Positions 7,556 through 14,122 of a stretch of 15,450 bases of DNA are shown here, one piece after another. The position numbers were made by a program, and so were the translations under genes. The stretch is from a virus (taxonomy: Duplodnaviria; Heunggongvirae; Uroviricota; Caudoviricetes): IMG/VR virus record IMGVR_UViG_2541047931_000009; one strand, written 5' to 3'. Below the pieces are notes generated by a model. The model saw only the letters and a program-made list of their open reading frames with translations, had not been told where the DNA came from and made no database searches. Numbering within the stretch: position 1 is the first letter of the stretch; the number at the start of each line of letters is the position of its first letter.

Positions 7556-7966
7556 TTAGCGTGGTAAGATCTGTGTAGTTTTCTGGATGCTTTCAGTAAA
7601 TAGTAATGAATTATCAAAGGTATAGTAATATCTTTTTTGTTCGTGGATATTTGTAACCCACCGAAAAACTCCTGCTTTAGCAAGGTTTCTTCTGTATTCC
7701 TGAAATGTGATCTCTCTGGATTTCAGCTTATTAGAGGTCGTTTCTATAAGATGCCTATCCTTTGAAAATTTGACAGACACAATGTTTTTTAGGCCCTTTA
7801 ATAACACTGTATTATCATTTTTTAATACAATATGAACATTCTCTGTGGCTAAATAGTAAATGTAATGTGAGACATTGTGACGTTTTAGCTCAGAATAAAA
7901 CCATTGATAGTTTAAATCGTTTCGAACTTTATCAAATATTTGTTTAAAAATGACTACCTGATCCAT
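7556..7966 (-). CDS. ydfO: DUF1398 (YbcV/YdfO family) prophage protein, 136 aa
   Basis: Minus-strand ATG at 7966 (MDQVVIFKQ...) preceded by GGAAGG; the track start at 7981 adds 5 codons without a better SD. Confidence 0.8.
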
Positions 7967-8023
7967 AGATAAACCTTCCATGTGATATGAGGGGGCGTAG
8001 TCTGCACGATTATCTAAATTGCT

Positions 8024-8197
8024 TCAATCTGGTCTGACCTGTTTTCTGAGCAATTCAGTAATGTCACTCTTTTCTTTGTTTGCTTCAGAAGAAACTCTTT
8101 TTTCTGAGCACAGTCTCCGGCGGCAGGCTTCAATGACCCAGGCTGAGAAATTCCCGGACCCTTTTTGCTCAAGAGCGATGTTAATTTGTTCAATCAT
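8024..8197 (-). pseudogene. ynfO: Small ORF (57 aa from internal ATG) whose 5-prime region is replaced by the IS5 end; ynfO-like by position
   Basis: The 83-aa track ORF draws its first 23 codons from IS5 terminal sequence (8206-8275); the native part starts at the IS5 junction. Upstream region and possibly the N-terminus are lost. Confidence 0.4.
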
Positions 8198-8205
8198 TTG
8201 GTTAG

Positions 8206-9400
<1,195 letters not shown>

Positions 9401-9417
9401 TTAACGATTCACTGGAT

Positions 9418-10671
9418 ATGCTTGCTGGCTTTTCGCCTGGTTATAAGCAAATAACTGTAGGTGATGATGTTATTAAAATGCCATCCGATAAGGTTGTTAG
9501 CTTCAAACGCGCATCAGGTGCAACATACATTAATAAATCAGGAGTATTAACCGTTGCTGAAGTTGACGAACCGCGATTTGAACGAGAAGGTTTGCTGATT
9601 GAAGGACAAAGAACCAACTATCATCTTAATTCACTTACGCCATCTAAGTGGGGAGCTACAACAAGTGTAACTATAACAGAAAGTGGTGTTGATGAGTTTG
9701 GCTTTACTTATGGGCGGTTTCAAATAAAGGACGAAAAAATTGGGACAAATACGACAATGAATATCGCTGCGGTTTCAGGAGGAAGAGGTGTCGATGTTAC
9801 TGGAACTGAAAAGTATGTTACAACATCATGTCGTGTAAAAAGCGATAGTGCTAATATACAATGTCGTATAAGATTTGAAAGATATGACGGGTCCGCATAT
9901 TTTTATCTGGCAGATGCATATCTTAATATAACAGATATGTCCATTAGGAAAACGGGAGGAGGGGCTGCAAGAATAACCGCCCGAGCGGAGAAAGAATCTA
10001 ATGGATGGATTTATTTCGAGGTTACATATCAATCTGAAGCTATTGATAATATGGTTGGCTCTCAGATCCAAATTGCTCCACCTGTTTCACCTGGAACTTA
10101 TTTGGGCGGGGAATATTTGGATGTTACGACACCACAATTTGAAGGCGGCTCATGCGCATCATCTTTTATCATTTCCGATACAGTTGCATCAACGCGAGCA
10201 AGCGATATTGTTACATTGCCTTGTAAAAATAACATGGCCAGCAAACCTTTAACCTGCATGGTTGAAGTGAATAAAAATTGGTCTATAGCACCAAATTCCG
10301 CGCCTAGAATTTATGATATAACAGGATTTAAAACAAAAGACGACGCTTTTGTTTTTGCATTCAGAAATACAGCAGGTAGTGTAGGAACTCCATATGTTCA
10401 ATTTGGTAATCCAATATCATTTCCACCTGGAAATTACCCAAGAAAGATTATCGCTGTATATAGAATAAAAAGCGATGGCAAGTTTCAGGCTGGCTGCAAT
10501 GGGGTTTTATCAACACCAGCATCAACAACGTGGAAGAGTGTTAGTGGTGCTACAGGTATAAGGATTGGAGGCCAGACTACAGCCGGCTTACGTCATTTAT
10601 TTGGTTATATCAGGAATTTTAGAATATGGCATAAAGAATTAACCGATGCGCAAATGGGAGAGATAATATAA
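9418..10671 (+). CDS. Tail-fibre distal (receptor-binding) segment with C-terminal LamG/concanavalin-like domain; 5-prime truncated by IS5 (417 aa remain)
   Basis: Reading frame is open from the IS5 junction (stop at 9403-9405 lies in the flank); C-terminus ...GLRHLFGYIRNFRIWHKELTDAQMGEII is a typical LamG-domain ending; sits in the tail-fibre position before tfa and pin. Confidence 0.55.
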   Translation: MLAGFSPGYKQITVGDDVIKMPSDKVVSFKRASGATYINKSGVLTVAEVDEPRFEREGLLIEGQRTNYHLNSLTPSKWGATTSVTITESGVDEFGFTYGRFQIKDEKIGTNTTMNIAAVSGGRGVDVTGTEKYVTTSCRVKSDSANIQCRIRFERYDGSAYFYLADAYLNITDMSIRKTGGGAARITARAEKESNGWIYFEVTYQSEAIDNMVGSQIQIAPPVSPGTYLGGEYLDVTTPQFEGGSCASSFIISDTVASTRASDIVTLPCKNNMASKPLTCMVEVNKNWSIAPNSAPRIYDITGFKTKDDAFVFAFRNTAGSVGTPYVQFGNPISFPPGNYPRKIIAVYRIKSDGKFQAGCNGVLSTPASTTWKSVSGATGIRIGGQTTAGLRHLFGYIRNFRIWHKELTDAQMGEII

Positions 10672-10952
10672 TGCGAGATTTAATTATCAAATTCACAGAC
10701 AAGGCCGACTTTTCGGCCTTTATGAAGAGTGCTGGCTATTATGATGACGAGTCGATGCAGGATGATATTCTTATTGACGTGATAGGTAACGTGTACAAAG
10801 AAACCGGAGAACTTACTGAAGATGGCGAGCCGGTATGTGTTAAGGAAGACGGATATTTTGTAAACGTGCGCATCATTAATGATGCAAAAAAATCGTCAAT
10901 ATTCGATAAATACGCGGTTGTTGTTGAGCATCAACTTCGTGGCTGGATGTGA
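10671..10952 (+). CDS. Hypothetical acidic protein, 93 aa, translationally coupled to the fibre gene
   Basis: ATG overlaps the upstream stop (TAATG at 10669-10673); MRDLIIKFTDKADFSAFMKSAGYYDDESMQDD...; no recognisable motif. Confidence 0.5.
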   Translation: MRDLIIKFTDKADFSAFMKSAGYYDDESMQDDILIDVIGNVYKETGELTEDGEPVCVKEDGYFVNVRIINDAKKSSIFDKYAVVVEHQLRGWM

Positions 10953-10961
10953 GGCAGGAAA

Positions 10962-11666
10962 ATGGCTACATCGACAGTAATTCCAGGAGATATCACCAAG
11001 CTAAAGGGGGATGTCAGTAAAGCTAAGGAAGATATTTCATCAATTAGCAGAAAAGTATCAACGCTTCAGACTGAGATGACCAGTGCAAAGCAGGATATCA
11101 GCTCCAGATACACAAAAACTGAAGTTGATAATAAGCTGAAAAACAAAGTGGAAGTGAACGATCTGGAAAGTGGTCGTTATGGCGGAGATTTTTATCCACT
11201 GACAGGTCGTGAAGCGTTTTATTTATGGAATTTGGCCACGACTACAGCGGCGGCAAACCTTTATCTTAATCCTGACCGTGCAATTTCGTCTGTGCTGCGG
11301 TCAACATCGTCTATCCGCTATAAACATTCAGTAGAGACAATAGATTCAGAGCACGCCGATCTCATTTTCAGGATGCGCCCTGTGTGGTACAGGTCGCAAT
11401 GCGAAAATGACAGGCGTGACTGGGGATTCTACGGATTGATTGCCGAGGAAGTAGGAGAAATTGCTCCTCAGTTTGTACACTGGCGACCAGCTAACGAAGA
11501 TGATGCTCCTGAAGCTATTTCCAGCAATGGCCTTGTTGCCGAAGGTGTAATGTACGAACGTCTGGTTGTTCCACTGATTCACCATATCCAGAAACTGACT
11601 GAAAGAGTTGATGAACTTGAGTCAGAATTAAAGTTGTTATTAACTTCCCGAAGCGATATTAGATAA
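10962..11666 (+). CDS. Short fibre-like protein: N-terminal coiled coil plus C-terminal peptidase-S74-like intramolecular chaperone domain, 234 aa
   Basis: Heptad-like N-terminus (DITKLKGDVSKAKEDISSISRKVSTLQTEMTSAKQDIS); C-terminal block SIRYKHS...FRMRPVWY...GFYGLIAEEVGEIAPQFV...YERLVVPLIHHIQKLTERVDELESEL resembles the self-cleaving chaperone domain of endosialidase and T5-type fibres. Confidence 0.6.
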   Translation: MATSTVIPGDITKLKGDVSKAKEDISSISRKVSTLQTEMTSAKQDISSRYTKTEVDNKLKNKVEVNDLESGRYGGDFYPLTGREAFYLWNLATTTAAANLYLNPDRAISSVLRSTSSIRYKHSVETIDSEHADLIFRMRPVWYRSQCENDRRDWGFYGLIAEEVGEIAPQFVHWRPANEDDAPEAISSNGLVAEGVMYERLVVPLIHHIQKLTERVDELESELKLLLTSRSDIR

Positions 11667-11676
11667 AGGAGGAGTA

Positions 11677-11970
11677 ATGGATATAACACCTTTTCTTCAT
11701 GCGCTTTGTGCTGTGGCTGCGCAGACACTGGTTGGTCTTTTTACCGGAAACTGGGCTTATGGGGCGATAGCTGGTTGTACGTTCTTCATTGCGCGTGAAC
11801 ACACCCAGGCAGAATATCGCTGGATTGAAATGTTCGGGCATGGCAAGCGGATTAACATGCCGTGGTGGGGCGGTTTTGATCCGCGTGTTTGGGATGTGGC
11901 AAGCCTGATGGATTTTGCTGTGCCGGTGGTGGCGTGTCTGCTGATCTGGCTGTTGGTTAATCGTGGGTGA
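11677..11970 (+). CDS. Small integral membrane protein, 97 aa, about 3 TM segments, unknown function
   Basis: Strong SD AAGGAGGAG 5 nt before ATG 11677; hydrophobic segments FLHALCAVAAQTLVGLF, WAYGAIAGCTFFIA, LMDFAVPVVACLLIWLLV. Confidence 0.6.
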   Translation: MDITPFLHALCAVAAQTLVGLFTGNWAYGAIAGCTFFIAREHTQAEYRWIEMFGHGKRINMPWWGGFDPRVWDVASLMDFAVPVVACLLIWLLVNRG

Positions 11971-11980
11971 AAAAAGGTGA

Positions 11981-12100
11981 GCTGTATATGCAACGGAGGA
12001 AGAAACCCCGTTGCTGGAAGCCAGGAAAAAGTATCGGGTGTTGCTGAACCGTGTTGATACGTCAACTGCACAGGATATTGAATGGCCAGCACTGCCGTAG
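11981..12100 (+). pseudogene. Relic 3-prime end of a tail-fibre assembly (tfa) gene, last ~39 codons only
   Basis: Frame from 11981 to TAG 12098-12100 reads [39 protein letters not shown], closely matching the recalled lambda Tfa C-terminus (...[29 protein letters not shown]); an in-frame TGA lies at 11978-11980 just upstream. Confidence 0.6.
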
Positions 12101-12197
12101 GGTAAAACATATAAATTCTATAATTAGATGTATCTTTCCATTTACGGCAAGGAAGGGGGCTTGGAAGACGTAAAGCATCTCACACCGAGATTATTTT

Positions 12198-12788
12198 TTA
12201 TATGTCAGGTGTCTGAAGTTTTGCTTTGGCTCTTAAAATGGTTTGCCGCGAGGTTTTGAATTCCCGGGCAATGGCACTTATACTTACACCTGACTTAATC
12301 CGTTCGAATACCACCTGTTTCTGTTCTTCATTTAACACAGGTGGTCGACCAAAACGTTTCCCTGCGCCCCGGGCTCTTACTATCCCGGAATGAGTGCGTT
12401 CAAGTAAAAGGTCTCGTTCAAATTCAGCGACTGCTGAAATTACTTGCATCATCATTTTTCCTGTTGGACTGGTCAGGTCAATGCCCCCCAATGCTAAGCA
12501 ATGCACTCTGATACCTGTTTCGGTCAGTTGTTCCACTGTTTTCCTGATATCCATTGCATTACAACCAAGGCGATCCAATTTTGTCACAATCAATTGATCA
12601 CCACATTTCAGGCGAGCAAGCAACCGGTTAAAACCAGGACGCTCACTGGTTGCTGCTGAGCCGCTAATGTGTTCTTCGATTATTTGCTGAGGTTTGATTT
12701 TAAAACCTGCACTTTCGATTTCCCGGCGTTGATTTTCGGTGGTCTGATCCAGCGTTGATATCCGACAGTAAGCAAAAATTCGAGACAT
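12198..12788 (-). CDS. pinQ: Serine recombinase (resolvase/invertase family), 196 aa
   Basis: N-terminal catalytic region [15 protein letters not shown]... (active-site Ser context), LDRLGCN motif, C-terminal HTH ([20 protein letters not shown]); convergent with the fibre module. Confidence 0.88.
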
Positions 12789-13103
12789 AGTGAGACTCTA
12801 TACGAAATTGGTGTTCATATCATAATGCATCTCAGAAAATAATTTTGATTATTTTTGTGCATATTTGTATGTACACGTTCGAAAATAAACGAATGCGTAT
12901 GCAACCCCGTAATTTTGGTGAGACCCAAAATCGATTTTGTGAAAAATGGCTTTAACTCGGTTTGTTTTTCGAGTTCCAGGCGGACTCAAGGAAGAAGAAT
13001 AGTGTTGCGTGTTATTTTAACCAGATTTCAAGTTGTTTGGTCGTGGAAAAGTGGAGCAAAATGTTGTTAAAGTGGAAAATGATAAAAAAGTAAGTTAATT
13101 ATA

Positions 13104-14034: not shown

Positions 14035-14122
14035 TCAGGATGCTTTTTAAAAAATGCAACTATCTGAAAAAACCTAGATCAGGATGCTTTTTAAAAAATG
14101 CAACTATCTGAAAAAACCTAGA
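14035..14122. repeat. Perfect tandem direct repeat, 2 x 44 bp
   Basis: TCAGGATGCTTTTTAAAAAATGCAACTATCTGAAAAAACCTAGA occurs at 14035-14078 and again at 14079-14122; a degenerate third CAGGATGGG follows near 14139. Confidence 0.9.

Follow-up and report, generated by a model that had tools for sequence, protein, structure and literature searches.

We identified the 3′ end of a tail-fibre assembly (tfa) gene at the edge of a side-fibre cassette in a lambdoid prophage, and we consider it highly probable that this stub is a non-functional fossil left by a cassette replacement that later spread through homology. The window that we analysed is the whole 15,450-nt stretch of DNA from IMG/VR record IMGVR_UViG_2541047931_000009. 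Within it, the unambiguous tfa remnant occupies positions 11990-12100 on the plus strand and consists of 36 codons followed by a TAG stop, as established by Pfam, nucleotide identity and the annotation produced by PGAP. The identity of the stub, the position of the junction to its left, the wide sharing of this junction among genomes, the mixture of right-hand flanks and the relaxed constraint on the encoded protein were all observed directly.

Identity and extent of the tfa remnant

The first-pass annotation had called an unmistakable Tfa C-terminus of about 39 codons at positions 11981-12100. This call was borne out by translation of 11969-12100, by matches in Pfam and PHROG and by nucleotide identity. 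A 39-amino-acid read matched the Pfam family Caudo_TAP (PF02413) with an E-value of 6.1e-14 and a score of 52.7 bits (cut-off 22.1), with residues 4-39 aligned to positions 95-130 of the 131-position profile. PHROG tail-fibre-assembly families were also matched by the stub peptide. The conserved C-terminal domain of Tfa (...EEE..LL.AWK.YRV.LNRVD....PDIEWP) is present, and PGAP labels the equivalent of 11990-12100 in E. coli B REL606 as "tail fiber assembly protein, incomplete, missing N-terminus". The length needed a small correction. The 36 codons and stop of 11990-12100 are clear, but the first three of the 39 (AVY, 11981-11989) lie in a decayed stretch.

Nucleotide alignment against lambdoid tfa genes was positive. 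Identity to tfaQ-type genes was 98-99%: positions 11990-12299 are 99.0% identical to the tfa-recombinase region of phage PhiR42_1, and 11989-12299 are 98.4% identical to tfaQ-pinQ of K-12. The match to lambda tfa extends over 11989-12090 at 92.2% identity. This nucleotide-level similarity to tfa genes clearly contradicts a coincidental peptide match. At the protein level, the stub peptide is 86-94% identical to the C-termini of lambdoid Tfa proteins, and relatives with 44-94% amino acid identity occur in lambdoid, P2-like, APSE, Klebsiella, Yersinia and Erwinia phages. Tfa proteins consist of a variable N-terminal domain, which binds the fibre, and a C-terminal domain that is conserved (PMC9608196). 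The stub corresponds to the conserved domain, which explains why its DNA is alike even in otherwise unrelated phages.

The N-terminal fibre-binding domain is missing, as is a complete open reading frame of ~175-195 codons. Homology ends at 11989, or at ~11976 if the decayed stretch is included. An in-frame TGA precedes the stub at 11978-11980, as had been described. The end of homology, this TGA and the presence upstream of the stop codon of an unrelated gene indicate that the stub is a gene fragment and not a functional member of the family.

The junction upstream of the stub

We located the point at which tfa-derived DNA gives way to the upstream cassette. Clear homology to every tfa allele begins at 11989/11990. 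The adjoining stretch at 11976-11989 on the plus strand appears to be a decayed continuation of tfa. Its sequence, GGTGAGCTGTATAT, was aligned in a fixed register with GTTGAGCTGGAAATC from the tfa allele of mEp460/Ayreon; 11 of 14 positions agree (binomial P ~4e-5), and the window is one nucleotide shorter. BLAST carried the mEp460 match back to 11978, and the layout that is shorter by one base was also seen in a diverged IMG/VR copy (L024). The tfa-derived DNA most likely begins near 11976. The TGA at 11978-11980 falls in the Tfa frame because of the 1-nt deletion in this decayed stretch, which spans about four codons.

The junction proper is a run of A residues at 11971-11975 on the plus strand. 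It lies between the stop codon of a 97-aa gene (11968-11970) and the first recognisable tfa-derived base, and it is identical among all carriers examined. We found no similarity to any tfa allele to the left of 11976 and none between the cassette end and tfa across the join. From these alignments we infer that the first join was a single, old, non-homologous event, and we do so only because nothing tfa-like is visible to the left of ~11976. Alternatively, the donor may have carried a tfa-like flank that is now unrecognisable. The first-pass annotation proposed that the cassette was acquired by recombination within tfa. Our analysis did not uphold this proposal: the join shows no homology and looks non-homologous, and homologous exchange is instead seen to the right of the junction, inside the stub. 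A search of the literature yielded nothing specific on this junction or on the fibre cassette of phage 21.

A fusion of the 97-aa open reading frame to Tfa by read-through or frameshifting was considered and rejected, as the +1 frame stops at the TGA at 11978-11980 after three codons. Several IMG/VR loci, namely L052, L062, L063, L067 (CGA) and L077 (GGA), have a sense codon where the 97-aa gene otherwise ends in TGA. In these loci the 97-aa frame continues into the stub in the third frame. Longer variants of 101-146 aa occur among homologues of the 97-aa protein.

The fibre cassette upstream of the junction

The genes that precede the stub had been described as unrelated. They are unrelated to tfa, but they form another fibre cassette, and all of its genes lie on the plus strand. 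The first, at 9418-10671, encodes the C-terminal half of a shaft protein of ~790 aa; it matches positions 375-793 of the 793 positions of phrog_1419 and an NCBIfam spike-fibre domain. It is followed at 10671-10952 by a 93-aa gene of PHROG 1361 (phrog_1361, E=1.3e-44), which is also found in the cassettes of HannyBb, PhiR49_1 and phage 21. A distal fibre protein of 234 aa is encoded at 10962-11666. It resembles the C-termini of long tail-fibre PHROGs, and its residues 116-172 match the intramolecular chaperone domain Peptidase_S74 (PF13884) with an E-value of 3.9e-6 and 27.5 bits (cut-off 22). The last gene of the cassette, at 11677-11970, encodes the 97-aa membrane protein, a member of PHROG 1443 (phrog_1443, E=2.7e-58).

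We examined the 97-aa protein further. Its AF2 model has a pLDDT of 92.5 and consists of three helices. The protein had no match in Pfam, NCBIfam or PADLOC, and Foldseek returned no significant match in the PDB or BFVD. A loop motif (AREHTQAEYRWI...G.R..MPWWGGFD) is nearly invariant in homologues from Escherichia, Salmonella, Leclercia, Aeromonas and Comamonas. In unrelated prophages the gene immediately follows S74-type fibre or tailspike genes, and it is found in about one third of E. coli genomes. One can only speculate that it acts in superinfection exclusion.

In E. coli lambdoid phages, the stub always accompanies the 97-aa gene. Complete cassettes are present in the isolated phages HannyBb, Tritos, PhiR49_1 and phage 21, none of which has an annotated full-length tfa. 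HannyBb, Tritos and phage 21 form plaques. Tfa is plausibly dispensable here through the chaperone domain built into the S74 protein, judging from its domain family. We compared lambda with HannyBb, phage 21, PhiR49_1, mEp460 and REL606 and found two matches in the fibre region, the 5′ ~350 nt of stf and the 3′ ~100 nt of tfa. These sole matches indicate that the cassette is bracketed by conserved patches, ~350 nt at the start of stf and ~110 nt at the end of tfa. The stub had been taken to mark a junction where fibre modules were exchanged. It does form the right-hand boundary of a replaced cassette, but the replacement was not an event of this prophage.

Prophage context of the window

The window comes from a cryptic lambdoid prophage of E. 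coli that resembles Qin; it is the right-hand part of this prophage and adjoins ydfJ. E. coli B strains (REL606 and BL21) are 100% identical to it at 11600-12300. An IS5 copy on the plus strand at 8202-9404 (DDE_Tnp_1 transposase, 99.6% identity to IS5) is bounded by terminal inverted repeats (8201-8222 and 9384-9405). To the left of IS5 the window is 99.8% identical to K-12, and to the right it resembles E. coli B, which makes it a hybrid. No complete genome in the collection was collinear with the whole window; the best coverage was 85%.

With IS5 as the link, K-12-like Qin DNA near ynfO leads into the middle of the shaft gene; REL606 homology begins directly after the IS5 copy, at 9401. The 4-mers that flank IS5 are unequal (TTAG at 8198-8201 and TTAA at 9405-9408), which indicates a deletion or an IS5-IS5 recombination at this site. 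These features suggest that an IS5-associated deletion took out the region from the packaging genes to stf. The left homology patch and the front half of the shaft gene are absent from the window.

Just inside the prophage end, upstream of the truncated ydfJ, we observed a perfect 44-bp tandem duplication at 14035-14122 (TCAGGATGCTTTTTAAAAAATGCAACTATCTGAAAAAACCTAGA, two copies). The unit is present as a single copy in REL606 and has no exact match in the K-12 locus.

Distribution of the junction

We measured how widely the junction is shared, requiring at least 80% coverage for the 91-nt and the longer junction probe. The 91-nt probe across the junction (11945-12035) was found in 1737 of 5426 complete E. 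coli genomes, at 2703 places, and in 36 phage records that include the classical phage 21. A longer probe that covers the whole stub (11945-12100) was found in 950 genomes, and the full arrangement with pinQ (11600-12300) in 460. The junction is conserved at 99% or more in 1015 records.

The 97-aa protein is encoded at 80 loci in IMG/VR, 53 of which have enough downstream sequence to judge. Approximately 49 of these 53 carry the same spacer and stub. Three are diverged, and in one the spacer is interrupted by an insertion sequence. No tfa remnant follows the distant homologues of the 97-aa gene in Leclercia, Salmonella and Aeromonas; these homologues lie after an S74 fibre gene in a P2-like prophage of Leclercia, after a tailspike gene in Salmonella and alone on the chromosome in Aeromonas. 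This distribution fits a single ancestral event in which a foreign cassette was inserted into a lambdoid tfa gene. The prophage in our window inherited or imported the junction ready-made. The strong conservation of the junction could reflect selection on the stub instead of recent spread.

Right-hand flanks and continued recombination

The left junction is invariant, and the right side varies. We distinguished at least eight or nine right-hand contexts, with the classes drawn from only about a dozen phages and 53 IMG/VR loci. The window, REL606 and HannyBb carry a tfaQ-type 3′ end followed by pinQ, and PhiR49_1 and ev243 carry a DLP12 tfaD-type 3′ end followed by ybcY. A lambda-type flank was found in L024. 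In phage 21, 4C10 and D2, a second cut at 12046/12047 is joined to the sitABCD operon. Further contexts switch at about 12012, about 12055 and about 12088. The switch points fall inside the stub or at its end. In the window, the spacer from the tfa stop to the convergent pinQ stop (12101-12197) is 99% identical to PhiR42_1 and 98% to K-12, and it was inherited along with the tfaQ-type 3′ end.

Individual bases of the stub follow the same logic. Positions 12061, 12072-73 and 12082 track the right flank, and positions 12008, 12023 and 12028 assort independently of them. As far as the alignments go, this is the pattern expected if the stub kept recombining with intact tfa alleles by homologous exchange or gene conversion. 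Exchange of this kind has been measured: lambda recombines with Rac and Qin within the stf/tfa homology at ~2e-6, and one third of the Rac recombinants had their crossover in a tfa patch of 95% identity (PMC3945230).

Three related IMG/VR loci (L024-L026) differ from the other copies. Their stub (1792-1950 in L024) is much more diverged from the window than the regions on either side of it, and a stop replaces the Trp codon in the C-terminal motif of Tfa. Identity is still 96% for the 97-aa protein. The right flank resembles the lambda type. These features suggest that the stub was swapped for a distant tfa allele and did not decay in place.

A model for the origin of the stub

We propose the following model, in which we infer the order of events, the non-homologous first join and the part played by the S74 domain in making Tfa dispensable. 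In an ancestral lambdoid phage, a foreign side-fibre cassette would have taken the place of the distal stf region and of ~80% of tfa, counted from its 5′ end. The incoming cassette would have comprised the shaft protein, the 93-aa protein, the S74 distal fibre protein and the 97-aa membrane protein. Its right end would have been joined non-homologously inside tfa, a few bases past the stop of the 97-aa gene and before the DNA for the conserved domain. A fibre chaperoned by its own S74 domain would no longer have needed Tfa, and the stub alone would have stayed.

The stub (~110 nt, 92-99% identical to the tfa genes compared) and the 5′ end of stf would then provide two patches for RecA or lambda Red. 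Through both patches the whole cassette could move between lambdoid phages and prophages, and new right-hand accessory regions could become attached. In our window the junction would have arrived ready-made with the tfaQ-pinQ right side, and an IS5-associated deletion would later have removed the front half of the fibre gene.

The stub as a possible homology arm

The stub might have been retained by selection as a portable homology arm, or linker, for the transfer of cassettes into lambdoid genomes that bear tfa. We consider this unlikely. Lineages that keep the stub would be predicted to spread their cassette more often than lineages that lose it. Several observations agree with such a role. 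The invariant junction is found in a third of E. coli genomes with at least eight or nine right-hand contexts, and crossovers in the tfa patch have been demonstrated experimentally (PMC3945230). Unrelated cassettes, such as the single long fibre gene of mEp460/Ayreon and tfaX of DLP12, also end in tfa 3′ stubs, and their breakpoints precede the same conserved domain by between a few and a few tens of bases.

Against this, the half-stubs of the phage 21 type are still very common (~790 genomes bear the junction without the long stub, from 1737 minus 950), which argues against a strong requirement for the stub. In one IMG/VR locus (L084) the stub is only ~22 nt long. Survivorship alone would give the same pattern, as a neutral 110 nt beside a successful gene would hitch-hike with it. 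Hitch-hiking accounts for the data equally well. If the stub did serve as a homology arm, this would explain why several unrelated cassettes that are independent of Tfa keep a stub broken before the conserved domain.

Coding potential of the stub

We asked whether the stub region encodes a functional small protein, either a 19-aa peptide in another frame or a 29-aa peptide initiated at TTG, and we regard this as very improbable. Both open reading frames exist. The 19-aa frame is on the plus strand at 11988-12047, with its ATG at 11988 and its TGA at 12045-12047, and lies inside a 26-aa frame that starts at GTG. Its ATG is part of a decayed TATATG at the left edge of the stub. A Shine-Dalgarno-like sequence, AAGGTGAG, is found at 11974-11981, 8 nt ahead of this ATG, so that the first-pass description of a 19-aa frame with a ribosome-binding site matches the sequence. 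The frame is open in the window, HannyBb, PhiR49_1 and ev243. The 29-aa frame, at 12011-12100, corresponds to the C-terminal helix of Tfa.

The remaining evidence on the 19-aa peptide points the other way. Its frame is also open in lambda tfa, without an ATG there, which suggests that the open frame simply follows from the codon usage of tfa. In ev243, 8 of the 19 residues of the peptide are different, and in phage 21 the stop is lost and the frame extends to 25 aa. Neither the 19-aa nor the 29-aa peptide matched any family. The earlier suggestion that the 19-aa frame is fortuitous fits these findings, since the frame is open in lambda tfa, the peptide varies among carriers and the stop is lost in copies of the phage 21 type.

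The Tfa frame itself is altered at residues that were judged invariant by comparison with the intact Tfa proteins of lambda and PhiR42_1 and K-12 TfaD, a small sample. The window has S to P (12008) and W to R (12023). Among the other carriers, HannyBb has L to R and ev243 has four changes. In copies of the phage 21 type, the stub is cut at 12046, which leaves only its first 19 codons and halves the peptide. Changes at invariant residues argue against a functional peptide in the Tfa frame and indicate that constraint has been relaxed. Thus, the protein-level evidence agrees with a non-functional fossil.

RNA features and regulatory signals

We searched the region for signals and structures at the RNA level. 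No intrinsic terminator was called in 11600-13000, the spacer at 12101-12197 included. Promoter-like sequences in the same interval numbered 5 against 2.4 expected, which is unremarkable. The plus strand of 11960-12200 folds no better than shuffled sequences (z=-1.26). The minus strand gave z=-2.33, with 6 of 200 shuffles as stable, and is not convincing.

It is extremely unlikely that the stub is, or belongs to, a small regulatory RNA of the Rfam family IS009. The family (RF02111) was the only Rfam match, reported by cmscan at 11968-12066 with 63.1 bits and an E-value of ~1e-13. This score falls short of the gathering score of 117, and 122 of the 199 model positions are skipped. The stretch of the model that does align contains no base pairs, and the plus strand shows no unusual stability over 11960-12200, as noted above. 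The full-length match in K-12 lies within the tfaD coding sequence, which indicates that the match in the window only re-detects tfa homology. RF02111 is listed as an sRNA gene, and its K-12 copy falls entirely within the tfaD coding sequence (7857-8055 of locus L011). The IS009 family looks like a model of tfa coding DNA and not of a structured RNA.

The adjacent DNA invertase

The stub converges on pinQ, which is encoded on the minus strand at 12198-12788. The predicted product is a 196-aa serine DNA invertase (Resolvase, E=2.5e-36, with HTH_7; PHROG 125), and pinQ is annotated in REL606 and K-12. The gene is intact, and the same arrangement is present in HannyBb and Tritos, both plaque-forming, and in PhiR42_1.

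We give next to no credence to the idea that PinQ made the junction at a crossover-like site and that the stub is a relic of an invertible segment such as Mu G, P1 C or e14 P. The position of pinQ, 98 nt downstream of the stub, is in keeping with it, and earlier authors, as cited in PMC3945230, have proposed that invertases drive the exchange of fibre segments. Our scan with a loose Din-type pattern (TNNAAACCNNGGTTTNNA, at most 3 mismatches; a divergent site could escape) gave 4 matches, compared with 10 expected by chance, and none lay in 9400-13000, around the stub and pinQ. Inverted repeats around the region occur at chance level only. There is one tfa piece, on the plus strand, and the minus strand has no opposed fibre C-terminus or Caudo_TAP-like frame. 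The same junction also occurs in phage 21, PhiR49_1 and 4C10, which have no invertase. The crossover scan, the repeats and the carriers without an invertase make an invertase origin unlikely.

Meaning of the stub

The stub is a known kind of scar. It is a pseudogene fragment at a mosaic boundary, of a type already present in annotation (by PGAP; compare tfaX). Its significance lies mainly in annotation, where it provides a clean, datable marker of one fibre-cassette replacement. It also illustrates how the short, conserved end of a gene can act as a patch through which host-range modules recombine. This is of use in the design of chimeric lambda side fibres and in tracing prophage mosaicism; the principles involved are known ones, and none is new.

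Comparison with known systems

We compared the window with related loci. The closest are tfaQ in the Qin prophage of K-12 and tfa of PhiR42_1, which share with it the 3′ 111 nt, the spacer and the convergent pinQ at 98-99% nucleotide identity. Qin also resembles the window in its type of chromosomal locus, at ydfJ. K-12 tfaQ differs in being complete, with 191 codons directly after stfQ, whereas everything before the last 36 codons has been replaced in the window.

The tfaX gene of the K-12 prophage DLP12, near tfaD and ybcY, resembles the stub: both are short pieces of tfa at mosaic boundaries of cryptic lambdoid prophages. PhiR49_1 and ev243 connect the two arrangements, with the junction of the window followed by exactly the DLP12-type flank. 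Unlike the stub, tfaX is a middle piece with a premature stop inside the conserved domain; the stub retains the whole domain and the natural stop.

In phages mEp460 and Ayreon, too, a fibre gene is followed directly by a tfa 3′ stub. This stub is unannotated, and neither phage has a complete tfa in its annotation. Their cassette is different: it encodes one fibre protein of ~1200 aa and lacks the 97-aa gene, and its break in tfa is at least 25 nt further upstream. These differences in cassette and breakpoint point to an independent truncation.

As in the Tfa chaperones (lambda Tfa and Mu U; PF02413), the conserved C-terminal domain is encoded in the window. The stub differs from them in lacking the N-terminal domain and a sensible start, and in carrying substitutions at conserved residues.

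Lambdoid mosaicism is understood as the product of rare non-homologous joins followed by homologous exchange through flanking homology. The window differs in no essential way from other lambdoid module boundaries; like them, it has one novel joint that is fixed, highly identical patches on its flanks and a large number of partner modules.
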